Virus record (IMG/VR): IMGVR_UViG_3300037309_000121
Source: a virus
Strand: one strand, 5' to 3'
DNA: 64,000 bases
Numbering within the stretch: the first letter of the stretch is position 1; each line of letters starts with the position of its first letter. The translations under genes were made by a program, and so were the position numbers. Positions 35,848-60,748 of the stretch are shown one piece after another. The notes beneath the pieces were generated by a model. The model saw only the letters and a program-made list of their open reading frames with translations. It was not told the DNA's origin and made no database searches.

Positions 35848-36687
35848 ATGGCCAAGCAGGACAACCAAACCAAGGATCTGGGCAGCAAGGAAACTGGAGA
35901 GCTCGCGAAGTTCGACTACGGGGAGATGGCAGGCTCCGGATTCGAGAACGTCACGACCAAGGATCTCTCCATCCCGTTCCTGACTGTCCTCCAGGCGCTG
36001 AGCCCGGAAGTTCAGCCGGGGGAAGATCGCGTGCCGAACGCCGAGGCGGGCATGCTCTTCAACACCGTGACTCGCGAGCTCTTCGACCCCAAAGAGGGCA
36101 TCTGCTTCCAGCCGGTCTGCACCCAACACTGCTTCATGGAGTGGCGGCCCCGCAACCAGGGCGGCGGCCTCGTGGGCAAGCACTCCGTTGACAGCGAGGT
36201 GGTGGCGAAGGCCCAGGCTGCCGCGAAGGCCGCGAACGCTGAGTTCGGCAAGCTCAAGACTGCCGCGGGCAACGACCTGATCGAGACTCGCTACATCCTC
36301 GGCTATATCCTCCGAGACCCGAACCAGGAGGATCCGGGCGAGCCGATCATGATCAGCTTCACGTCGACGAAGATGAAGGTCTACAAGAACATCACCACCC
36401 GCCTCTACACCTTCGCCGGTCGTCCTCCGCTCTTCGCGCACCGTCTCCGCATCACGTCGTCGATGGAGGAGAATCCCAAGGGCAAGTTCTACAACTTCAA
36501 GATCGAGCCCTTCTTCGGCTCGATCCAGGAGTCTCTGATCAACCCCGCGAAGGAGTCGACGAGGAAGCTCCTGACCGACGCCTTCGAGCTGAAGCAGTCG
36601 TTCGAGAAGGGCGAGACCAAGGTCAACTACGAAAAGCAGGGCGGTGCCTCCAACAGCTCCGACTCCGGCGAGGAAGTTCCCTTCTGA
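35848..36687 (+). CDS. Single-stranded DNA-binding / annealing protein
   Basis: DLSIPFLTVLQALSPEV, GMLFNTVT, NPKGKFYNFKIE, acidic tail ending EEVPF. Confidence 0.7.
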   Translation: MAKQDNQTKDLGSKETGELAKFDYGEMAGSGFENVTTKDLSIPFLTVLQALSPEVQPGEDRVPNAEAGMLFNTVTRELFDPKEGICFQPVCTQHCFMEWRPRNQGGGLVGKHSVDSEVVAKAQAAAKAANAEFGKLKTAAGNDLIETRYILGYILRDPNQEDPGEPIMISFTSTKMKVYKNITTRLYTFAGRPPLFAHRLRITSSMEENPKGKFYNFKIEPFFGSIQESLINPAKESTRKLLTDAFELKQSFEKGETKVNYEKQGGASNSSDSGEEVPF

Positions 36688-36717
36688 CGACTCCGAACTT
36701 CGGCTGATTGCTCTTGT

Positions 36718-36747
36718 GCCGGGGTGGGTGCCTGCACCCACCCCGGC
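36718..36747 (+). terminator. Perfect 13-bp hairpin between SSB and RecD-like gene
   Basis: GCCGGGGTGGGTG-CCTG-CACCCACCCCGGC; lacks strong U-tract. Confidence 0.5.
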
Positions 36748-36766
36748 TGGTTCGTCGGGAGAAATC

Positions 36767-38029
36767 ATGAACTTTTCGCCGCAGCAGGATCAAGCCCTGC
36801 AGAGAGTGGCCCGCTGGCTGGAGAAACCAGACAAGCCCTGGTTCTATTTGGCCGGATATGCCGGAACTGGCAAGACAACCTTGGCCAAAGAATTCGCCTC
36901 CGGCGTAGGTGGTGGCGTGTGCTTCGCTGCCTATACTGGCAAGGCGGCATATGTGCTCCAGAGCAAGGGGTGCGTCGGAGCCACGACTCTCCATCGACTT
37001 ATCTACAAGCCGAAGGACAAGTCCAGGCAGCGGCTGAAGGAGCTGCAGGAGCAGCTCGACGACCTGGTGCAGCAGCTCACTGCCGAGGAGAAGGTCGGCT
37101 ATCCCTGCGACCACGGCAACCCCGCCATCGCCGAAGCTGTCAACAAGCACCCAGAGGTCGTCAAGCTGCGCGCCGAGCTGGACGCCGAGCGATCCTCGCT
37201 GGAGCGCCCGCTGTTCGCTCTCAACCTCGAGAGCGAAGTTCGCAACGCCGAGCTCGTGATCATCGACGAATGCTCGATGGTCGACGAACAGATGGGCAGG
37301 GATCTCCTCAGCTTCGAGACACCTGTGCTCGTCCTGGGCGACCCAGCTCAGCTCCCACCCGTTCGCGGCGAGGGCTTCTTCACTCAGCGGGAGCCCGACT
37401 ACCTGCTCACAGAGATCCACCGTCAGGCAAAAGACAACCCCATCCTGAGACTGGCGACGGATGTGCGAGAGGGTCGTAGTCTGTCTGTGGGGGACTACGG
37501 CGACAGCAGAGTCATCGATCTGTCGAGCGCGGAAGAATCCCTCTACACATCTCACGAGCAGATGCTCGTAGGCAGGAACCAGATGCGCAAGGGCTGCAAC
37601 CGGAAGATCCGGAAGCTCCTGGGTCGCGAGCTGCCTATGCCGTCGCCGGGAGATCGTCTCGTCTGCCTCCGCAACAACCACGAGTTCGGTCTCCTCAACG
37701 GAGGCATCTGGCAGACTCAGGACGCCGTTCAGATCGACGCAGACGAGATCGGTCTCACGCTGAAGAGCGAAGACGGCAGCTCTTCGATTACCACCGTCGC
37801 ACACACCCACTACTTCCTCGGAGAGAAGCCCCCGTTCTACCAGATCCGAGAGCGAGACTGCTTCGACTTCGGCTACGCTCTAACGGTCCACAAGTCCCAG
37901 GGTTCTCAGTGGGATAGCGTGCTGATCTTCGACGAGAGCTGGTTCATGCGGAACCTAGCCAGAAACTGGATGTACACCGCTATCACGCGAGCTGCGAAGA
38001 AGGTGACGATCGTCCGCCACCGGCGCTGA
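36767..38029 (+). CDS. RecD/Dda-like SF1B helicase
   Basis: GYAGTGKTT, IIDECSMV, VLGDPAQLPPV, YALTVHKSQGSQW, YTAITRA. Confidence 0.92.
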   Translation: MNFSPQQDQALQRVARWLEKPDKPWFYLAGYAGTGKTTLAKEFASGVGGGVCFAAYTGKAAYVLQSKGCVGATTLHRLIYKPKDKSRQRLKELQEQLDDLVQQLTAEEKVGYPCDHGNPAIAEAVNKHPEVVKLRAELDAERSSLERPLFALNLESEVRNAELVIIDECSMVDEQMGRDLLSFETPVLVLGDPAQLPPVRGEGFFTQREPDYLLTEIHRQAKDNPILRLATDVREGRSLSVGDYGDSRVIDLSSAEESLYTSHEQMLVGRNQMRKGCNRKIRKLLGRELPMPSPGDRLVCLRNNHEFGLLNGGIWQTQDAVQIDADEIGLTLKSEDGSSSITTVAHTHYFLGEKPPFYQIRERDCFDFGYALTVHKSQGSQWDSVLIFDESWFMRNLARNWMYTAITRAAKKVTIVRHRR

Positions 38030-38078: not shown

Positions 38079-39884
38079 ATGTCATACGGTCCCAAGCTGC
38101 CCATCTCTCAGGAAACCCACGCCGAGAAGTACCGCCTCCCGGGCGAGAGCTTCGAGGAAGCGATGAGACGGGTCGCGGTCGGTCTTTCCGATGACAGTGA
38201 CCACTTTGTCGCGCTGGAATCGATCCTTCTACACCAGCGGTTCATGCCGGGCGGTCGCGTGCAAGCCGCTATCGGTTCTCCCAAGGATGTCACTGCATAC
38301 AACTGCTTCGTCAGCGGAACTATCGACGACAGCTTCGTCGAAGGTGCTGGGAGCATCATGTCGCGCCTGCGCCAGGCGGCAGCGACGATGCGCAAGGGCG
38401 GAGGAATCGGCTACGACTTCAGCACGCTCCGCCCAGAGAAGGCGACGATCCGCAAGCTGATGTCCGTCAGCTGCGGCCCCATCCCCTTCATCAAGATCTT
38501 CGACGCGAACGGTCGCTGCATCAGCAGCGCCGGGCACCGCCGCGGGGCGCAGATGGGAGTGATGCGGGTCGACCACCCCAACATCCGGGACTTCATCCGC
38601 ATGAAGCAGCCTCCTGCCGAGGCTGCTCCGGTCATCCAGGCCATGGACGCATGCGAGCCAGGGAGCCAGGATTGGGCGAGTTGGTACTCCTGCCTCCAGA
38701 AGCTCCTGGACGTGAAGGGGTTCAACGTCTCCGTCGCCCTGACCGACGAGTTCATGGAGTGCGTCCAGCAGGGCAGCCCGTTCAACCTCCGCTTCGGTGG
38801 CAAGATCTACGAGACCATCGAGGCTCGCGAGCTCTGGGAGCTCATGATGAGGTCGACGTGGGACTGGGCAGAGCCCGGCGCTCTGTTCATCGACACCATC
38901 AACCGCATGAACAACCTGTGGTACTGCGAGCAGATCGCGGCCACGAACCCGTGCGGGGAGCAGCCCCTGCCGCCCTTCGGGGCCTGCCTGCTGGGCAGCT
39001 TCAACCTCGTGAAGTACATTGCGACCCGCAGCGACGGCACCCGCCGCTTCGACTTTGATCAGCTCCGGGCCGACATCCGCCCGGTGGTCAGAGCGATGGA
39101 CAATGTCGTGGATCGAACTCGCTACCCGCTCCGCGAGCAAGAAGCTGAGGCTCAATCGAAGCGGCGCATGGGTCTCGGGGTGACCGGGCTGGCGAACGCT
39201 CTCGAGGCGCTCGGTCACCCCTACGGCTCCACAGAGTTCCTGCAGATGCAGCACCAGATCCTCTCGCTGATCGCCCGGTGGTGCTACATCGCCAGCACCG
39301 AGCTCGCGCAGGAGAAGGGATCCTTCCCGCTCCTCGACGTCGACAAGTTCCTGCAGAGCGGCTTCATGAAGACCATGGACGAGGAAGTTCGCGACCTGAT
39401 CCGTCACCGAGGCATCCGCAACAGCCACCTCCTGTCGATCGCCCCGACCGGAACCATCAGCCTCTCGGCAGACAACGTGAGCTCGTCCATCGAGCCAGTG
39501 TTCGCGTATCAGACCGAGCGGAAGATCAACATGCCCGGCGGCATAGTCACCGAGGTGATCCCTGATTACGGGGTTGCCCAGTTCGATGTTCGAGGTAAAC
39601 GGTGCTCCGACGTGACGGTTGCCGAGCACCTCGCCGTCCTCGAGACTGCCACCCGGCATGTCGACTCTGCGGTCTCGAAGACCTGCAACGTACCTGCGGA
39701 CACTCGCTGGTCCGACTTCGAGAACATCTACATGGAAGCATGGCGACGGGGGTGCAAGGGCATCACGACCTACCAGGTCGGAGGTCGCCGGGCGGGCATC
39801 CTGAAGTCTGCGGACGAGAGCGCGGAGAAGTCGGTGGAGATCTGCCACGTCGATCCGGAGACCGGCGCAAGAAATTGTGAGTAG
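38079..39884 (+). CDS. nrdJ: Class II (B12-dependent) ribonucleotide reductase
   Basis: YNCFV, TNPCGEQPL, SIAPTGTIS, KGITTY; no small-subunit gene nearby. Confidence 0.9.
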   Translation: MSYGPKLPISQETHAEKYRLPGESFEEAMRRVAVGLSDDSDHFVALESILLHQRFMPGGRVQAAIGSPKDVTAYNCFVSGTIDDSFVEGAGSIMSRLRQAAATMRKGGGIGYDFSTLRPEKATIRKLMSVSCGPIPFIKIFDANGRCISSAGHRRGAQMGVMRVDHPNIRDFIRMKQPPAEAAPVIQAMDACEPGSQDWASWYSCLQKLLDVKGFNVSVALTDEFMECVQQGSPFNLRFGGKIYETIEARELWELMMRSTWDWAEPGALFIDTINRMNNLWYCEQIAATNPCGEQPLPPFGACLLGSFNLVKYIATRSDGTRRFDFDQLRADIRPVVRAMDNVVDRTRYPLREQEAEAQSKRRMGLGVTGLANALEALGHPYGSTEFLQMQHQILSLIARWCYIASTELAQEKGSFPLLDVDKFLQSGFMKTMDEEVRDLIRHRGIRNSHLLSIAPTGTISLSADNVSSSIEPVFAYQTERKINMPGGIVTEVIPDYGVAQFDVRGKRCSDVTVAEHLAVLETATRHVDSAVSKTCNVPADTRWSDFENIYMEAWRRGCKGITTYQVGGRRAGILKSADESAEKSVEICHVDPETGARNCE

Positions 39885-41212: not shown

Positions 41213-41439
41213 GGTGCTACAACGGATGTCCCGACAGCAAGCTGAAGGCGTATCTGGACGAGCAGGCTTCTCTGCGACGGCAGATCGATGCTCTAGGCTA
41301 CCGTGTCACGTGGTTCCCCAGTGGTGAGTTCTATCAAGCGTTCACGAGGAACCTTCAGCCCGTGGGCAAAGAGCACCGCTCGCTCACAGAGGTGCTCGAA
41401 GAAGTGAGGAGTCTGCACAGTGGGAACGCGCAAGTATGA
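41209..41439 (+). CDS. Hypothetical protein
   Basis: GTGA coupling; GGAG RBS. Confidence 0.55.
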   Translation: MRCYNGCPDSKLKAYLDEQASLRRQIDALGYRVTWFPSGEFYQAFTRNLQPVGKEHRSLTEVLEEVRSLHSGNAQV

Positions 41440-42325
41440 CAAGCTGAGCATCGAGGACTTCGGGGCTCACCTGCTCGACAACCTCGACCTTGACCCGATC
41501 TACGTGGCCCTGCACCGTCTGCAGTGCACTGAGGGAGGTTGGGACCTAGCCACGATCTACCGCTGGCTCGTCGCCTACTGGTGCTTCTACCACGCCGGGG
41601 CCGCGTGCTACATCGCCTCCCGACCGCGAGAGGAGTTCTGGGACTGGATGGAGCGGGCGGCTGCGAATCGCGTCGAAGAACCGTGCCCGCTGGGCGGGAA
41701 CGCCGTGAACGGAGGCTGGCCGCGAGGCCACGAGCGCCGCCACTTCCGCGGAGCCCAGGGCTACGCCGCGGTGAAGGAGCTGAAGGCGAAGTACCCGGAG
41801 CCCGAGGACTTCGTCGTCGCCCTGCAGAGAGTCGACGCGGGGACCAGCGTCCCGTTCTCCAAGCTCTCGGAGAAGATCCGGGAGCACCGGAGCTTCGGCC
41901 CCTGGATCGCCTTCAAGGTTGGCGACATGCTGGATCGCGTGCTCGGCAAGCAGGTTGACTTCACCGAGGCCGAGGTGTTCATGTTCGAGGCCCCGCGGGA
42001 AGCCGCCATCCTCCTGTGGCGCACGAAGCAGAACCTCCCGGAAGGTGCGAAGCCGAAGGACGAGACCCAGGTCATCAAGCGGGTCGTGCAGTACCTCGTG
42101 GACTACTTCGCGGGAGCGCCCCACGAGAAGCGAGCGCCACCTTCCTACGACCGGATGGTCGGTCTGCAGGAGATCGAGACGATCCTCTGCAAGTGGAAGA
42201 GCCACATGACGGGCTCGTACCCACTGTGGAACGATATCGACGAGATCAACGCCGGGCTGTCCCTCTGGAGCGAGACGTGTCCGGCAGTCCAAGAATTCCT
42301 CAGGCACATGCCGAAGCGCCGATGA
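41420..42325 (+). CDS. Amino acid:DNA transferase (AADT, aGPT-Pplase2 family)
   Basis: DLDPIY, RWLVAYWCFYHAGAA, WPRGHERRHFRG, FGPWIAFKVGDM, QEIETILCKWKSH; matches recalled M6 gp51 / PaMx11 gp47 type. Confidence 0.88.
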   Translation: MGTRKYDKLSIEDFGAHLLDNLDLDPIYVALHRLQCTEGGWDLATIYRWLVAYWCFYHAGAACYIASRPREEFWDWMERAAANRVEEPCPLGGNAVNGGWPRGHERRHFRGAQGYAAVKELKAKYPEPEDFVVALQRVDAGTSVPFSKLSEKIREHRSFGPWIAFKVGDMLDRVLGKQVDFTEAEVFMFEAPREAAILLWRTKQNLPEGAKPKDETQVIKRVVQYLVDYFAGAPHEKRAPPSYDRMVGLQEIETILCKWKSHMTGSYPLWNDIDEINAGLSLWSETCPAVQEFLRHMPKRR

Positions 42326-42522
42326 AGAAGATATCTGCAATCCTCTCGCTCGTCGTCCTGAGCGGATGCTCTTCGGCTCCGAGCAGACCTGAGGGATTTT
42401 GCAGCCGTGGGGTCCCGCTCGAGAGTCCCAGCTCCTGGAGGAGCGGCATCGTCGATCAGTCGATAGAGGAGGCCGATCGTCGGCAGTTCCTGCGCCAGCT
42501 CGAGAAAGAGGTTCGACAGTGA
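42322..42522 (+). CDS. Small lipoprotein
   Basis: MKKISAILSLVVLSG-C lipobox, 66 aa, ATGA coupled. Confidence 0.65.
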   Translation: MKKISAILSLVVLSGCSSAPSRPEGFCSRGVPLESPSSWRSGIVDQSIEEADRRQFLRQLEKEVRQ

Positions 42523-42626
42523 GAAGTCGCAAGCTCTACCAGTTCCTGGTCGGATTCTTCGAAGGTCTTTTCGTCGGATTCGTCGTCGGCCTGTCCATCG
42601 TGATCTTCTTCCTGGAGGTCCTGTGA
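42519..42626 (+). CDS. 35-aa single-TM membrane peptide
   Basis: RSRKLYQFLVGFFEGLFVGFVVGLSIVIFFLEVL; GTGA coupled both sides. Confidence 0.5.
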   Translation: MRSRKLYQFLVGFFEGLFVGFVVGLSIVIFFLEVL

Positions 42627-43483
42627 ACACCATCAACGTCGTCGGTGCAGGCATCGCCGGATCTTTGGTCGCTCGCGTCCTCCGCGCTCGCGGGCACACG
42701 GTTCGGGTCATCGACGACTGCGACGTCAACTCCGCGAGCCGTGCCAGCAGCAACTTGTACATCGGGAGCTGGCTGAAGAAGTTCGGCAGCCCCGCAGCGT
42801 CGAACGGCATCCGCGTCGTCGAGGAGCTCTTCGCCGGGAAGATCGACCAGCCTTTCAGTCGCGGGATCGCCGACGCCGCTAGGGTGCGGCACATCGCCCA
42901 GCGGCACCTGCTCGTCGATCCCGATGTGGTCGGCACCGCTACCTCAGTTCACCAGGTTGACGACCCGTTTCCCCCGAACTACGGGGGTGGAGTCAAGGTG
43001 TCTGTGCTCGGAGGTAGGTTCTTCCCCGGACGAACCGTCATCTGCACCGGCTATCGAGGTGCGGAGCTCGTTCCCGGCCTGAAGGTCGACGTCAAGGTCG
43101 GCCACGGCATCCACTTCCGCGGCCGCCTGCCGGAGGGGAAGAGCTCGCTCACGCTGGCCTCTCCCTACACGCACGCGAAGCTCTACCAGCTCGACGAGGA
43201 CACGATCTACTTCGCAGACTCCGTCGCCGTGACCCGAGGTACCTACGACAAGCGGAGGAAGGAACTCATGGACCGCACCATGGCCCGCGCGGTCAAGCTG
43301 ATCGGGTTCGAGCCCGAGGTGAAGTCCATCCTCGTCGGCTACCGGCCGTTCGTCTCCGGACACGACTTCGGTTACCTCGCGCAGGTGAAGCCGGGCGTGT
43401 GGGTGCTGAACGGGGGTGGGAAGAACGGCATCGTGGCCTACGCCGACGCGGCAGATCGGCTCGCGAAGGAGATCGGGTCGTGA
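42623..43483 (+). CDS. FAD-dependent oxidoreductase (glycine/D-amino-acid oxidase-like)
   Basis: VVGAGIAG Rossmann motif, SRASS, GYRP, NGGGKNGI. Confidence 0.85.
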   Translation: MNTINVVGAGIAGSLVARVLRARGHTVRVIDDCDVNSASRASSNLYIGSWLKKFGSPAASNGIRVVEELFAGKIDQPFSRGIADAARVRHIAQRHLLVDPDVVGTATSVHQVDDPFPPNYGGGVKVSVLGGRFFPGRTVICTGYRGAELVPGLKVDVKVGHGIHFRGRLPEGKSSLTLASPYTHAKLYQLDEDTIYFADSVAVTRGTYDKRRKELMDRTMARAVKLIGFEPEVKSILVGYRPFVSGHDFGYLAQVKPGVWVLNGGGKNGIVAYADAADRLAKEIGS

Positions 43484-44373
43484 GGCACGAGGTGCTCGTC
43501 GGTGATTCCCTGTCGTTACTGCAGTCGCTCGAGGACGAGCGATTCCAGTGCTGCGTCACCTCGCCACCCTACTGGGGGCTGAGGCACTACGGAGCTGAGG
43601 GGGAGATCGGTCGAGAGCAATCGGTGCAGGAATACGTCGATAGGCTCGTGGCCGTATTCTCTGAGGTTCGCCGAGTTCTCAGGTCGGACGGCACGCTCTG
43701 GCTGAACATCGGCGACACGTACACCTCCGGTGGGCGGGCTACCTTCAGGAGCAGCGCCTCGTCGAACAAGGGGCATCGTCGGCAAGATGATCTGCCCCGA
43801 CCGCAGACTCCCGCTGGCCTGAAGCCCAAGGAGCTCGTAGGTGTGCCGTGGCGATTGGCCTTCGCACTCCAGGCTGATGGCTGGTACCTGCGCAGCGACA
43901 TCATCTGGCACAAGCCGAACCAGATGCCGGACGCGGCGAAGGATCGACCCACGAAGGCGCACGAGTACATCTTTCTGCTCGCCAAGAGCGAGCGATACTA
44001 CTTCGATCGGCACGCGATCATGGAGAAGGCGGTGTGCCAGCGCAAGCGAGGACCGAGCCTGCACAAGGATCTTGTCTCGACGAACGGCAACGGTGGACTC
44101 AGCAGGCGGGAGCCGGAGGAGTTCCGCAACGGCAGGACTCTGTGGTCAATCAACACTGCGTCGATCAGAGGGCAGAAGCATTCGGCAGTCTTCCCCCGAT
44201 CCCTGGCAATGAAGTGCATCCGAGCTGGTTCGAGGCCAGACGACGAGGTTTTGGATCCTTTCGTCGGTTCGGGCACGACTCTGGTCGTCGCCAGGCAGCT
44301 TGGCAGAAGTGGAGTCGGCATCGAGCTGAGCTCGGAGTACGCCGACGCGGCGAGGAAAAGGATCGAAGCATGA
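43480..44373 (+). CDS. Beta-class amino-methyltransferase (N4-cytosine type, SPPY)
   Basis: VTSPPYWGLR, LWLNIGDTY, IIWHKPN, HSAVFP, LDPFVGSGTT. Confidence 0.92.
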   Translation: MRHEVLVGDSLSLLQSLEDERFQCCVTSPPYWGLRHYGAEGEIGREQSVQEYVDRLVAVFSEVRRVLRSDGTLWLNIGDTYTSGGRATFRSSASSNKGHRRQDDLPRPQTPAGLKPKELVGVPWRLAFALQADGWYLRSDIIWHKPNQMPDAAKDRPTKAHEYIFLLAKSERYYFDRHAIMEKAVCQRKRGPSLHKDLVSTNGNGGLSRREPEEFRNGRTLWSINTASIRGQKHSAVFPRSLAMKCIRAGSRPDDEVLDPFVGSGTTLVVARQLGRSGVGIELSSEYADAARKRIEA

Positions 44374-44807
44374 GCAATCGCGACGACACCATCAAGATTC
44401 GTCCCGCAACTCGTGGTGATCACGAAGTCCTGCTGGCTATCGCCAAGAGCCACAAAGCCACACGTGACTTCGGACATATCATGTTCTCTGGAGAGCAAGC
44501 ATACCAGAAAGGCTGGATCCGCGTCGCAATCGTAGCCGATCACGTTGTGGGCTTCACCTGTGTGCGGCACAAGATGCGAGAACCCAAGACCAGCTTGTAC
44601 TACATCTGCGTCAGGCCCGAGGCGAGGCGGATGAAAGTTGGTCAGGCCCTCCTGGACGACCTTACAGCCACCTCGCCGCATCGCTGCATCGAGCTCTCCT
44701 GCTTCAAGGACAACGCGGAGGCCCTGGCCTTTTACGCGAAGAACGGGTTCGAGCAGAAGGGTGAGGCTCTGAAGGGCAAGGGTTGGCATCTGGAGAAGAC
44801 CTGGTGA
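44370..44807 (+). CDS. GNAT-family N-acetyltransferase
   Basis: ICVRPEARRMKVGQALL, DNAEALAFYAKNGF; ATGA coupled. Confidence 0.88.
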   Translation: MSNRDDTIKIRPATRGDHEVLLAIAKSHKATRDFGHIMFSGEQAYQKGWIRVAIVADHVVGFTCVRHKMREPKTSLYYICVRPEARRMKVGQALLDDLTATSPHRCIELSCFKDNAEALAFYAKNGFEQKGEALKGKGWHLEKTW

Positions 44808-44950
44808 GAACTTGCCCAGACAGGCTGTGTGTTGGCTATTCTTTCTGGCCTCATCCGCTGGTGTGGTGGTGGCGCGGTTGGAGACGCTGGCCACTTTGTC
44901 GGGCTTGTCGCTTCTGCGGCAGGCAAACTGTTCGGAGGTTCAACCCATGA
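44804..44950 (+). CDS. 48-aa Trp/Cys/Arg-rich micro-ORF (below ORF-track threshold)
   Basis: GTGA overlap with GNAT stop and ATGA overlap with kinase start; RTCPDRLCVGYSFWPHPLVWWWRGWRRWPLCRACRFCGRQTVRRFNP. Confidence 0.5.
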   Translation: MRTCPDRLCVGYSFWPHPLVWWWRGWRRWPLCRACRFCGRQTVRRFNP

Positions 44951-45627
44951 TCATCAACATCCGAGGCACGTCCGGCTCCGGGAAGACAACGCTTGTGCGC
45001 AAGGTCTTCGACCATCTGCAGGCTGGGAACCACACGAAGACTGAGTGGCACCTCGACGAGCAGGACTGGAGCCACCCCCTGCTCGCTGGGCTCCGACCAG
45101 AGCGCGAGCGCAAGCGCCCGTGGGGGTACGTCCTCGAGAACCGCGAGAGAAGGGCGAACGTCGTCGTGCTCGGCTCCTACGAGAGCGAGTGTGGAGGCTG
45201 CGACTCCATCTCGGGCCTCGACCTCATGTACGGCCTGGCGAGGCTCGCGCACGAGCGGCGATACCACGTCATCTTCGAGGGCCTCATCATCAACTCCGAC
45301 TTCAAGCGAGCGGCCCAGCTCGCGACGGACCAGATCCCGCACCTGCTCATCTACCTGAGTACCCCGCTGGAGCAGTGCATCCAGTCGGTCGAGCACCGGA
45401 GGAACCAGTCCAAGCGGGCCGAAAAGTTCCGCGCCGCTGGCGGGGAAATGCCTGCATTCAACCCGGCGAACACGCGGGCGAAGTACGACCTCAACCTCAA
45501 GATGATCGATCGCATGCGTGCGGCAGGAGTGAGCTGCCTGAGCCTCGCTCGCGACGAGGCGTTCCTCGAGATCTCGAAGCTCCTCGCCGAGCCCTGGACG
45601 GAGAAGTCGGGAAAGGTTCCGCAGTGA
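44947..45627 (+). CDS. P-loop nucleotide kinase associated with 5-hmdU modification
   Basis: INIRGTSGSGKTT; LGSYESECGGCDSI; VIFEG. Confidence 0.8.
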   Translation: MIINIRGTSGSGKTTLVRKVFDHLQAGNHTKTEWHLDEQDWSHPLLAGLRPERERKRPWGYVLENRERRANVVVLGSYESECGGCDSISGLDLMYGLARLAHERRYHVIFEGLIINSDFKRAAQLATDQIPHLLIYLSTPLEQCIQSVEHRRNQSKRAEKFRAAGGEMPAFNPANTRAKYDLNLKMIDRMRAAGVSCLSLARDEAFLEISKLLAEPWTEKSGKVPQ

Positions 45628-46502
45628 ACAGAGACAACGTCAACCTCTTCTTCGCAATCGCTCGGGAGCGGTACGCAATCAAGCTCCGCCGGGAGAAGAT
45701 GCCGCACAGCCCCGAGCAGTGGAGCGAAGATCCCATCTTCCGGCAGTGGAGATTCTGCAACGTCTTCCGCGAAGACGACAAGACCACCGCGTGGTTCCGC
45801 CGCAACATACGCGGCCCGCTCTCGCTTCGCGGACCAGATGTCCTGCTCGCAACGACACTGTTCAGATGGTTCAACCGCATCGAGACAGCCGACAAGATCG
45901 TCGAGTTCATGACTGTCGAGGGCTACAGCGAAGACGGGATCCGGAAGGTGCTGGAGGGGCACAAGCCGCTCGTCACCGGATCTTACGTCATCAAGACTCC
46001 GGACGGCCTCAGCAAGCTCGAGGGCATCCTCTCCTGCATGCGCCCCATCGTCAGGGACGCCGTGCAACTGGCCACGCACGTCGAGCCAGACACGACTCTC
46101 GAGGGGATGTGGACAGTCCTCCGGATGTACCCCTACCTCGGCTCCTTCATGGCCTACGAGGTCGTGAGCGACCTCCGCCACACCTGCTTGCTTCAGAACG
46201 CGCCAGACATCATGACCTGGGCGGCAGCGGGGCCGGGCTGCGCGCGCGGGCTGGGCTGGGTCGTCGCTGGAGATCCCGAAGCGTACAACTACAACTCCGC
46301 CAAGGGTCAGGCCAGGATGCTGTCCTGCATGCGAGAACTTCTGAGCATGAGCCAGAGCAGCGAGTACTGGCCCGAATCTTGGCCGAGGTGGGAGATGCGG
46401 GAGGTCGAGCACTGGCTCTGCGAGACGTGGAAGTACGTGCGGTGTCGAGATCACGGGCAGCCGCCCAGGGGGAGGTTCCGGTGCACCACCCCAGCAACCT
46501 GA
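45624..46502 (+). CDS. 5-hydroxymethyluracil DNA kinase helical domain (aGPT-Pplase1 family)
   Basis: ARERYAI...WSEDPIFRQWRFCNVFREDDKTT, FRWFNR, FMAYEVVSDL, GPGCARGL, REVEHWLCE. Confidence 0.88.
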   Translation: MNRDNVNLFFAIARERYAIKLRREKMPHSPEQWSEDPIFRQWRFCNVFREDDKTTAWFRRNIRGPLSLRGPDVLLATTLFRWFNRIETADKIVEFMTVEGYSEDGIRKVLEGHKPLVTGSYVIKTPDGLSKLEGILSCMRPIVRDAVQLATHVEPDTTLEGMWTVLRMYPYLGSFMAYEVVSDLRHTCLLQNAPDIMTWAAAGPGCARGLGWVVAGDPEAYNYNSAKGQARMLSCMRELLSMSQSSEYWPESWPRWEMREVEHWLCETWKYVRCRDHGQPPRGRFRCTTPAT

Positions 46503-46963
46503 GCAAGGCCGAGCTCGACGCGGCCTTCGACAACTCCGACTCCCGGCTGACCATCGCCGTCGACTTCGACGGAACGATCGTCGACCACCGCTACCCGGAC
46601 ATCGGAGCGCCCGCCTGCGGCGCGTTCGACTGGCTCCGCGAGCTGAAGCGGCGGGGCGTCAAGCTCATCCTCTGGACCATGCGGTCGGATTCGTCGAAGG
46701 ACGGTCCCACCCTGACGGACGCGGTCGAGTTCTGTCGGAGGCACGGCGTCGAGTTCGACCACGTCAACGAGAACCCGGGTCAGCGCACGTGGACCACGTC
46801 CCCGAAGTGCTACGCCCACATGTACATCGACGATGCCGCGGTGGGAGTGCCCCTCCGCGACTCGCCCCGAGCCGGTGGGCGACCAGTCGTCGACTGGCAC
46901 CGGCTCGGACCCATGATCCTCGAGCGGGTGCACGCTCACAACGACCGGAGGAAGAAGCCGTGA
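46481..46963 (+). CDS. HAD-superfamily hydrolase (BT0820-like)
   Basis: IAVDFDGTIV, ILWTMRS, FDHVNEN, KCYAHMYIDD. Confidence 0.85.
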   Translation: MHHPSNLSKAELDAAFDNSDSRLTIAVDFDGTIVDHRYPDIGAPACGAFDWLRELKRRGVKLILWTMRSDSSKDGPTLTDAVEFCRRHGVEFDHVNENPGQRTWTTSPKCYAHMYIDDAAVGVPLRDSPRAGGRPVVDWHRLGPMILERVHAHNDRRKKP

Positions 46964-47006: not shown

Positions 47007-47387
47007 GTGCCGCAGCGCCCGCCAGCGTACCTGCCGCCCGTCACCGACGACAAGGTCGTCGCGAGGTTCACCTCGCGCCTGTCCATGCCGGGGAACGACG
47101 CCTGCTGGTTCTGGTGGGGGCACGTCTCGGAGAAGGGCTACGGGCAGTTCTGGATGAGTGGCCGCGCCCACTGGGCGCACCGAGTTGCTTATGCGATCTG
47201 GGTCGGGGAGATCCCTGCGGGCATGACCCCCGACCACACGTGCGGGCGAGCTTCGTGCGTCAATCCGCACCACCTCACGCTTGTCACAATCTCCGAGAAC
47301 TCGAGCAATCGCTGGAAGAGGCAACGCGAGGGTTGCCCTAGCAGGGACGAGAGCTATACTCCCGAACAAGGAAACTCAACATGCTGA
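47007..47387 (+). CDS. HNH endonuclease
   Basis: CWFWWG, GYGQF, AHRVAY, PDHTCGRASCVNPHHL. Confidence 0.88.
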   Translation: MPQRPPAYLPPVTDDKVVARFTSRLSMPGNDACWFWWGHVSEKGYGQFWMSGRAHWAHRVAYAIWVGEIPAGMTPDHTCGRASCVNPHHLTLVTISENSSNRWKRQREGCPSRDESYTPEQGNSTC

Positions 47388-48418
47388 CGATCAAGGCCCG
47401 CAACGTACACCAGGCACTCCCAGAGATGATGCACCAGCTCCGCGCCAACGGAGTGCGCAGGGAGAGCCGCAACGGCTCGGTTCTGGTCTTTCCCTACCCT
47501 GTCGTGGTCGAGTACGCTCGACCCCAGGAGAGGGTCATGTACTGGCGCGAGCGGGACTGCAACCCGTTCTTCCACTTCTTCGAGGCGCTCTGGATGCTGG
47601 GGGGCCGCCGAGACGTAGCCTTCCCCTCGCGGTTCAACAGCACCTTCGGGCAGTTCAGCGACGACGGCGTCGTCTTCAACGGAGCCTACGGGTACCGGTG
47701 GCACGACCACTTCGGCCACAACCAGCTCGAGATCGTCGCCCAGCGGCTGAGGGCGAATCCCGACGACCGGCGAGTCGTCCTCGGGATGTGGGATCCTCGG
47801 GAGGATCTCGGCTCTTCCAGCAAGGACGTGCCGTGCAACCTAAGTGCCTGCTTCCAGCGGGGCGCTGACGGCGAGCTGAACATGACGGTCTACAACCGCT
47901 CCAACGACATCGTCTGGGGCGCGCTCGGGGCGAACGCGGTGCACTTCAGCGTGCTCCAGGAGTTCCTGGCGCTCGCCATCGGGTGCCCCGTCGGACGGTA
48001 CTGGCAGATCTCCTGCAACATGCACGGATACCTGAAGACGATCGAACCTCTCCTGTCGCTGTCGGACAAGTCCTTCCCCTCGAGGTATGCGCAACTCACG
48101 GACCCCTACGAGCAGGGCGACGTCCAGCCGCTCGAGATGTTCCCCTCCGGCACTGGAGGAGACTTCGTCAGCGACCTCGCGATGTTCCTCGACGAGGGCG
48201 AGCGGGCGATGGGGTACAAGACGAAGTTCATGCGCCGCGTCGCGATGCCGATGCTGCGGTCGTGGCTCGCGTTCAAGGACAGCAGCAACCCTACTAGGTT
48301 CGAGGAGGCGATGCGCATCGTGAACGACTGCCAGGCTACAGACTGGAGGCTCGCCTGCGGCCAGTGGCTCTCCGTCCGTCAGCAGAAGGCAGCTGCGAAA
48401 GCAGTCCAAGAGGAGTGA
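47381..48418 (+). CDS. Thymidylate synthase homologue, probable dUMP hydroxymethylase
   Basis: NPFFHFFEALWML, DVPCN catalytic Cys, RSND..WGA.GAN with Asn at the dUMP-specificity position; context of hmdU-modifying genes. Confidence 0.88.
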   Translation: MLTIKARNVHQALPEMMHQLRANGVRRESRNGSVLVFPYPVVVEYARPQERVMYWRERDCNPFFHFFEALWMLGGRRDVAFPSRFNSTFGQFSDDGVVFNGAYGYRWHDHFGHNQLEIVAQRLRANPDDRRVVLGMWDPREDLGSSSKDVPCNLSACFQRGADGELNMTVYNRSNDIVWGALGANAVHFSVLQEFLALAIGCPVGRYWQISCNMHGYLKTIEPLLSLSDKSFPSRYAQLTDPYEQGDVQPLEMFPSGTGGDFVSDLAMFLDEGERAMGYKTKFMRRVAMPMLRSWLAFKDSSNPTRFEEAMRIVNDCQATDWRLACGQWLSVRQQKAAAKAVQEE

Positions 48419-59926: not shown

Positions 59927-60748
59927 ATGCAGACATCAATCGTCAAGTCCGCAGCACCGTTCGACTGCAAGCTCCTGCAGCACTCGATCCAAGTCGAGGG
60001 AGATCGGATCCCTGGGGTCGAGGAAGGGAGCGTGACTCTCGCCTTCGCCGACCCACCCTACAACATCGGCGTCGAGTACGCCGACGACAGCACCAGGGAC
60101 AGACGTCCACCCACCGACTACTTCCAGTGGTGCCAGACCGTCATCGAGGTCGTGGCGAGGACGCTCCGACCCGGGGGCACCTTCTGGTGGCTCTGCCCGG
60201 AGCAGCACGGCGACACGATCGGCCCGATGCTGGAGCGGGTCGTCGGGCCCCGGCTGTACAGAATCATCTGGCGAGAATCGTTCGCCCAGTACCAGCAGCA
60301 CTCCCTCACCGCCGACTACCGATTCCTCTTCTGCCACAGGAAGCGACCTGATGACGACCTCAAGCTCGTCACCTTCAACCCCGACGCGATCCGCGAGCCG
60401 AGCGTCAGGCAGGAGATGGGCGACAAGCGGGCTGACCCCCGCGGCCGGGTACCTGGCCAAGTGTGGGACATCCGGAGGCTCCAGGGCACTGCGAAGGATC
60501 GCGTCGACTGGCACCCGGCGCAGCTGCCCCCCGAGCTCCTGAAGCGAATCGTGCTCGGGTGGTCCAACCCCGGAGATTTGGTCTTGGACGCCTTCGCTGG
60601 ATCTGGAACCATGGGTCTAACGTGCAGGGCATACGATCGGAAGTGCATCCTGATCGACCAGTCGCCGACCTACCTCCAGAAGATCCGAGAGCGACTTGGG
60701 CTCGACCAGTCTACGTCGTCTGGGAGCTCCGGGACGGAGGGTTCCTGA
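59927..60748 (+). CDS. Beta-class N6-adenine DNA methyltransferase
   Basis: FADPPYNIG, HPAQLP, VLDAFAGSGT. Confidence 0.9.
   Translation: MQTSIVKSAAPFDCKLLQHSIQVEGDRIPGVEEGSVTLAFADPPYNIGVEYADDSTRDRRPPTDYFQWCQTVIEVVARTLRPGGTFWWLCPEQHGDTIGPMLERVVGPRLYRIIWRESFAQYQQHSLTADYRFLFCHRKRPDDDLKLVTFNPDAIREPSVRQEMGDKRADPRGRVPGQVWDIRRLQGTAKDRVDWHPAQLPPELLKRIVLGWSNPGDLVLDAFAGSGTMGLTCRAYDRKCILIDQSPTYLQKIRERLGLDQSTSSGSSGTEGS

Follow-up and report, generated by a model that had tools for sequence, protein, structure and literature searches.

Gene content around P0001

The 64,000-nucleotide sequence of IMG/VR virus record IMGVR_UViG_3300037309_000121 (the window, by which we mean the whole stretch analysed) is a phage genome of the M6/YuA/PaMx11 kind with roughly 62% G+C. 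Its plus strand carries a single long early operon that runs from a helicase through DNA polymerase A (Table 1), and within this operon the gene of a beta-class amino-methyltransferase, P0001, lies between those of an oxidoreductase that depends on flavin adenine dinucleotide (FAD) and of a GNAT acetyltransferase. In phage PaMx11, gp46 adds glycine to phosphorylated 5-hydroxymethyldeoxyuridine (5-hmdU), gp47 cleaves the adduct to 5-aminomethyldeoxyuridine (5-NmdU, 257 u), and gp48 acetylates this to 5-acetylaminomethyldeoxyuridine (5-AcNmdU, 299 u) (PMC8989533); structures have been reported for gp46 and gp47 (PMC11472151). A first-pass annotation of the window had placed the methylase at the step where a free amine arises, and the operon bears this out: it is colinear with PaMx11 gp46-gp49, the stretch in which the unmasking of 5-NmdU by gp47 precedes its acetylation by gp48.

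The same annotation had taken the start/stop overlaps on both sides of P0001 as a sign that the oxidoreductase, methylase, and acetyltransferase are coupled. The overlaps themselves are present, a GTGA at 43480-43483 formed by the GTG of P0001 (43480-43482) and the TGA of the FAD gene (43481-43483), and an ATGA at 44370-44373 formed by the GNAT ATG (44370-44372) and the P0001 TGA (44371-44373). A Shine-Dalgarno sequence, AAGGAG, is found 8 nucleotides 5' of the GTG. However, start/stop overlaps of 4 to 8 bases are usual in this operon (RNR/DUF3489, DUF3489/orf97, orf75/FAD, kinase/HMUDK_hel, and HNH/ThyA). Since they are general, and extend even to an HNH homing endonuclease that is certainly no pathway enzyme, they show co-transcription but no special coupling of the FAD, methylase, and GNAT genes.

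Family and fold of P0001

P0001 is an SPPY methylase, as had been annotated. It carries TSPPYW at residues 27-32 (SPPY at 28-31), the catalytic motif IV, and matches PF01555 (N6_N4_Mtase) with 173.6 bits against a cut-off of 26.7. The S-adenosylmethionine (SAM)-binding motif I, DPFVGSGTT at residues 259-267, is C-terminal to motif IV, which is the permutation of the beta class. The variable region is kept, and both SPPY and FxGxG are intact. The top-ranked matches of an AlphaFold2 (AF2) model of the protein (predicted local distance difference test, pLDDT, 85) are all beta-class DNA methylases. The solved beta-class enzymes N4CMT (rotifer, 8s9m), TTHA0409 (2zie), M.PvuII (1boo), CcrM (6pbd), and M.BceJIV (8urk) have the same fold as the model; Foldseek comparison with solved beta-class methylases gave a probability of 1.00 and TM-scores of 0.6-0.8 by target length, and sequence matches to them reach down to E 2e-22. 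Their identity to P0001 is only 20-26%, and the solved structures are therefore uninformative on its target site.

More than 8000 homologs of P0001 were found at E<=1e-20, mostly 53-61% identical (typically about 55%), in bacterial chromosomes and many phages, and several of them are annotated as cytosine-N4-specific. One of these homologs, P0074 from a Stenotrophomonas maltophilia chromosome, aligns with P0001 end to end at 57% identity, and its gene is arranged tail-to-tail with that of a SmaI-family endonuclease of full length (PF17411, E 8e-89). This indicates that the P0001 family includes true SmaI-type restriction-modification methylases; M.SmaI produces N4-methylcytosine in CCCGGG. Context outside the phage lineage of the window was read for three members of the family, P0074 and two others, P0009 (59% identical to P0001), which adjoins RusA and a primase, and P0010 (56% identical), which sits among small early genes. 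These are the nearest outside relatives with context read, and hypermodification clusters are found around none of the three. P0001 has a nonsynonymous to synonymous divergence ratio (dN/dS) of 0.10-0.17, and it is therefore maintained as a functional methylase under purifying selection.

Presence and absence in relatives

Close relatives of P0001 (86% and 74% identity) were found in three sets of Logan contigs, with the same FAD-methylase-GNAT order and from the same phage lineage. Other phages lack the gene while being as close to the window as the methylase-bearing L001: the methylase-less L009, L010, L011, and L181 share with it 93% identity in the ribonucleotide reductase (RNR), 85-87% in the amino acid:DNA transferase (AADT), 83% in the FAD enzyme, and 87% in ThyA. 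In the four methylase-less phages the GNAT start lies within 3 bases of the FAD stop with no methylase between, and in the nucleotide alignment of relatives a clean gap the size of a gene extends between about 43480 and about 44370. The L010 record (66,455 bp, rated 100% complete) gave zero PF01555 matches genome-wide. P0001 is thus dispensable, with close relatives bearing the pathway without the gene. In the FAD tree L001 nests among methylase-less phages, which means that the gene was gained, lost, or exchanged more than once.

A survey of IMG/VR covered 80 AADT loci and 64 FAD-bearing loci, the latter with 6 kb on either side. A PF01555 gene of any kind was present in 2/64 of the FAD-bearing loci, a rate which we judge to be about background and near chance by a rough estimate of methylase frequency in phages, and a member of the P0001 clade was present in 0/64. 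The slot after the FAD gene in the surveyed loci is occupied by a GNAT, by an Amidoligase_2 together with a low-molecular-weight phosphatase, or by nothing. About 15 PaMx11-type metagenomic FAD-GNAT clusters contained no P0001-like methylase, and scanning metagenomes with the FAD protein yielded one further relative only. Among cultured phages, those with P0001-like methylases (of Mycobacterium, cyanophages, Staphylococcus, and others) and those with an AADT (Pseudomonas M6-like and others) are largely separate sets; megablast of the operon against cultured phages gave zero matches. Co-occurrence with FAD-AADT clusters, which the first-pass annotation had proposed examining across viral genomes together with synteny, was assessed here computationally, and the methylase clade is tied to such clusters in one phage lineage only, so that the new-base idea fails the check that the annotation itself had put forward. 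A shared origin of the methylase-linked FAD genes was also considered and rejected, as these occupy three separate places in the FAD tree.

Ordinary base methylation versus a role in the pathway

For P0001 the reading that we consider probable is an accessory N4-cytosine DNA methylase of the SmaI-type beta class, sequence-specific and orphan, which was inserted in and is co-transcribed with a PaMx11-type 5-acetylaminomethyl-dU operon and which covers G+C-only sites. The family, fold, motifs, indel status, and purifying selection of P0001 and the restriction-modification partner of its relative form the basis of this reading, and from them we infer the target base, the site, and an anti-restriction role. 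The base that P0001 would flip out is a cytosine, or possibly an adenine, within a short recognition site. Acting on newly replicated phage DNA, the enzyme would methylate the exocyclic amine of the flipped base using SAM, and this methylation would protect G+C-only restriction sites that are beyond the reach of thymine hypermodification. Since thymine modification cannot protect sites made of G and C only, which are common at 62% G+C, a cytosine methylase makes biological sense here. An ordinary m4C anti-restriction methylase had been named in the first-pass annotation as the simpler alternative, and with a 57%-identical relative that partners a SmaI endonuclease it is now the better supported of the two ideas put forward there. 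We prefer it because close relatives do without P0001, because outside its lineage P0001 has no link to AADT clusters, and because it is a full-length homolog of a restriction-modification methylase.

Several hexamers are avoided in this group of phages; the comparison covered the whole window and its relatives, including the L242-L245 relative genome. GCCGGC, GGCGCC, and ACGCGT have 0 occurrences where 28, 24, and 12 are expected, and all three are at zero in the window as well as in every relative. For GGGCCC and ACCGGT the window has 11 and 7 occurrences, against zero in every relative, both the methylase-less genome and the methylase-bearing L001 and L005. Two avoidances that its relatives keep thus seem to have been lifted in the window, perhaps because of a different host or of the second (DPPY) methylase. 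Phages that have the methylase and phages that lack it alike show no avoidance of CCCGGG, so SmaI-type pressure is not evident.

A number of observations weigh against the ordinary reading. The stem of the clade formed by P0001, P0007, and P0008 is in the 99th percentile of internal branch lengths, and this clade has replaced 7 of the 79 positions whose conservation across the family is at least 95% (72 are kept), compared with at most 4 such replacements and a median of 0 in the other 117 members. The clade changes listed include D36H/N, Q42E, S80T, D118E, E151D, S152A, V153A, and F235S. The replacements and the long stem are compatible with a changed specificity or a changed substrate. A single mosaic block takes in P0001 and, of the GNAT, the N-terminal two thirds: the two genes match in synonymous divergence (0.85-1.4), with values 2-3 times those of the AADT and FAD genes in the same phage pairs, and in the window both have a G+C content at third codon positions (GC3) below that of the neighbouring genes. 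No 4- to 6-mer tracks the presence of the methylase (the largest difference was 2.4 z), although power is low with only 21 kb of methylase-bearing relatives. The sample of three outside contexts is likewise small for so large a family. The last of these observations concerns a different group of PF01555 methylases, a small SPPY clade described below, which lies within a few genes of an AADT in 6 of the 8 contexts read; its strong tie to AADT clusters implies that PF01555 enzymes may have a role in this chemistry.

The GNAT gene of the window is of "allele A", which is linked to the presence of the methylase and differs from the allele of methylase-less phages (alignment A1). That a GNAT allele goes along with an insertion next to it is explained by physical linkage, and for phages neither fast evolution nor mosaic blocks are out of the ordinary. 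A raised dN/dS between the GNAT alleles was considered as a sign of co-adaptation and was not robust, appearing only in pairs of extreme GC3 in which dS is compressed; between the window and L009 the GNAT ratio is ordinary.

The small SPPY clade is compact, with about 30 sequences of about 220 residues (proteins P0128-P0156, alignment A3), all from metagenomes and with no members in cultured phages. In L040, which is one of the two PF01555-bearing FAD loci of the survey, a 224-residue member lies directly 3' of the FAD gene, overlapping it in an ATGA, and there is no GNAT; the member in L179 also directly follows the FAD gene. The architectures are AADT-FAD-methylase-kinase (twice), methylase-orf-AADT...FAD, GATase_6-AADT...HMUDK_hel-methylase, Tet_JBP-methylase...GATase_6-AADT, and AADT-methylase, and the clusters contain FAD or GATase_6 genes, not the M6-type pyridoxal phosphate (PLP) or radical-SAM enzymes. 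As a control we used 80 loci of generic methylases from an IMG/VR scan with the small-clade alignment, whose patterns are universal motifs; an AADT, kinase, or FAD gene was found in 0/80 of these viral loci with other PF01555 genes (1.06 Mb). The small clade is truly cluster-associated. If any methylase acts in thymidine hypermodification, this clade is the best candidate, and it is a better place than P0001 to test the idea of N-methylation. A special kinship between it and P0001 was rejected, with P0001, P0007, and P0008 scoring 63-71 bits on the hidden Markov model (HMM) of the clade, where the family has a median of 56 and a maximum of 73.

The first-pass annotation had suggested that P0001 methylates 5-aminomethyl-dU, which would make it a tailoring enzyme of the pathway that flips out this base once the FAD lyase has unmasked it and N-methylates its aliphatic amine to give 5-methylaminomethyl-dU, the DNA counterpart of 5-methylaminomethyluridine (mnm5U) in tRNA, while the linked GNAT allele may give an N-methyl-N-acetyl form. 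We regard this as unlikely. It would account for the position of P0001 exactly between the amine-unmasking and the amine-capping enzyme, in a slot that in other FAD clusters is taken by amine-modifying enzymes (a GNAT, or an Amidoligase_2 and phosphatase), for the long stem and the 7 changes at family-conserved positions, and for the linkage to its own GNAT allele that P0001 has kept while under purifying selection. The independent small clade near AADT genes, as against 0/80 in the control loci, also favors it, as does the parallel with the tRNA enzyme MnmC that has been drawn for gp47 (PMC8989533). These points are real but indirect. Against them stand the dispensability of P0001 in equally close relatives and the distribution of its clade, which is present or absent within its own phage lineage and found with FAD-AADT genes nowhere else, its nearest relatives being ordinary and one of them having a restriction-modification partner. 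The score of P0001 on the small-clade HMM is within the family range and shows no special similarity, and since the small clade sits at varied cluster positions, two methylases landing after the FAD gene is a weak coincidence. P0001 has no homology to the methylase domain of MnmC that acts on 5-aminomethyluridine (nm5U): Pfam gives PF01555 and two weak generic methylase matches, and NCBIfam gives only DNA methylases. We know of no PF01555 enzyme that methylates an aliphatic amine. The retained variable region fits a site-specific enzyme, and such an enzyme would reach no more than a small fraction of the modified bases. In our literature search no report was found of methylases in thymidine hypermodification clusters or of N-methylated aminomethyl-dU. 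We would give similarly little credence to the broader proposal that PF01555 amino-methylases, P0001 and separately the small clade, were recruited to convert 5-aminomethyl-dU to 5-methylaminomethyl-dU or, with the GNAT allele, to an N-methyl-N-acetyl form.

It is improbable, and the least expected of the readings considered, that P0001 is an m4C or m6A methylase specialised for 5-hmdU or hypermodified DNA, kept in the operon for timing, leaving the modified thymine untouched and having a specificity unlike that of its SmaI-type relatives. Such an enzyme would be consistent with clade substitutions in conserved core motifs that leave SPPY and FxGxG intact, with co-expression with the modification genes, and with the lack of CCCGGG avoidance whether or not the methylase is present. 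However, the substitutions are all that separates it from a plain accessory methylase, and phage genes commonly evolve fast.

If P0001 is the ordinary cytosine methylase that we prefer, a single operon would provide two anti-restriction layers, thymine hypermodification and cytosine methylation of thymine-free sites, and adjacency with start/stop overlap in phage early operons would be weak evidence of shared chemistry. If N-methylation were true, a new base would be present in phage DNA, the PaMx11 pathway would become a complete parallel to the MnmE/G-MnmC pathway of tRNA, and a very large methylase family would have an aliphatic amine among its substrates in addition to aromatic exocyclic amines.

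Other features of the operon and of related clusters

Table 1. Genes of the early operon and the second methylase in the window, with the positions of small-clade methylases in metagenomic contigs
Feature	Position	Strand	Matches and remarks
Helicase	36644-38029	+	
RNR	38079-39884	+	
DUF3489 protein, then two small open reading frames (ORFs)	between RNR and AADT	+	
AADT (aGPT-Pplase clade 2)	41420..42325	+	PF18724; ~47% identity to M6/YuA proteins
Small conserved ORF, 75 aa, AADT-FAD interval	42399..42626	+	66-aa gene called at the same place in relatives
FAD-dependent oxidoreductase, homolog of PaMx11 gp47 (glycinyl-thymine lyase giving 5-NmdU; function by homology)	42623..43483	+	PF01266 DAO; weak MnmC1 match; 25% identity full-length to gp47
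P0001, beta-class SPPY amino-methyltransferase, 297 aa	43480..44373	+	PF01555; phrog_67 DNA methyltransferase
GNAT acetyltransferase, homolog of PaMx11 gp48 (5-NmdU N-acetyltransferase)	44370..44807	+	PF00583; 43-46% identity to gp48
P-loop 5-hmdU DNA kinase	44944..45627	+	AAA_33; weak HMUDK_HMUD1 match
5-hmdU DNA kinase helical-domain protein (HMUDK_hel)	45624..46502	+	PF18723, 130.8 bits
HAD-like gene, DFDGT motif, start codon uncertain	46481-46963, HMUDK_hel-HNH interval		phrog_1238; no Pfam match
HNH homing endonuclease	47007..47387	+	PF13392; 7-nt overlap into ThyA-like gene
Thymidylate-synthase-like (ThyA-like) enzyme, predicted dUMP hydroxymethylase	47381..48418	+	PF00303; 49% identity to PaMx11 gp51
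DNA polymerase A	operon end, after ThyA-like gene	+	
Second accessory methylase, beta class DPPY	59927..60748	+	PF01555; best NCBIfam match adenine-specific methylase
Small-clade members	L040:11701-12375; L179:4095-4769; L095:6001-6672; L096:4691-5374; L097:6001-6660		

The operon is strongly mosaic. Its P-loop kinase is a swapped allele, only about 42% identical to the kinase of relatives that match the window at 82-95% in the flanking genes. Both the window and several relatives have an HNH gene 5' of the ThyA-like gene, and L006 has a LAGLIDADG gene after the GNAT (1347-1751); the presence of these homing endonucleases inside the operon makes it a frequent landing place for selfish or accessory genes. 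The 75-residue ORF between the AADT and FAD genes gave zero Pfam matches.

The second, DPPY-type methylase had been reported in the first-pass annotation at 59927, far from P0001, and it is indeed there, away from the operon, with an ATG at that position, the motif ADPPYN, and a PF01555 match of 135.9 bits. The complete relative genome L010 is without it. GANTC occurs 268 times in the window and 179 times in a similarly sized relative genome that lacks the DPPY methylase.

In seven of the surveyed loci (L020, L022, L035, L042, L051, L054, and L060) the GNAT after the FAD gene is replaced by an Amidoligase_2-like protein and a low-molecular-weight phosphatase, which suggests acylation or aminoacylation of 5-NmdU in place of acetylation. 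Amidoligases near such clusters have been mentioned previously but not resolved (PMC8989533). The cluster at L198:4348-10051 starts with a Tet_JBP gene, followed by AADT, FAD, GNAT, and kinase genes and then by an HNH gene and a 224-residue PF01555 methylase of a third type five genes downstream; no ThyA-like gene is in range.

Comparison with known pathways

The operon of the window is colinear with PaMx11 gp46-gp51, with homologous genes for AADT, FAD lyase, acetyltransferase, kinase, helical protein, and ThyA-like enzyme in the same order. It differs from PaMx11 in the presence of P0001, since no methylase lies between the FAD and acetyltransferase genes of that phage, and its FAD enzyme is only 25% identical to the PaMx11 counterpart.

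MnmC of bacterial tRNA modification has a FAD domain that converts 5-carboxymethylaminomethyluridine (cmnm5U) to nm5U and a methylase domain that converts nm5U to mnm5U. The window shares with this system the FAD-dependent cleavage of a glycine adduct, its FAD protein having weak MnmC1 matches, and would share the subsequent SAM-dependent N-methylation only if P0001 acted on the free amine. Unlike in MnmC, the substrate is DNA and P0001 belongs to the PF01555 DNA amino-methylases; the N-methylation itself is a hypothetical step.

Compared with SmaI-type systems, P0001 has no endonuclease partner next door and is located within a phage hypermodification operon; with a FAD lyase and a GNAT as neighbours instead of a cognate endonuclease, it is an orphan methylase. 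It also differs from P0074 in a 25-residue insertion in the variable region and in the 7 changes at family-conserved positions. The two proteins nevertheless have the same core motifs in the same order, with SPPY first and FxGxG last.

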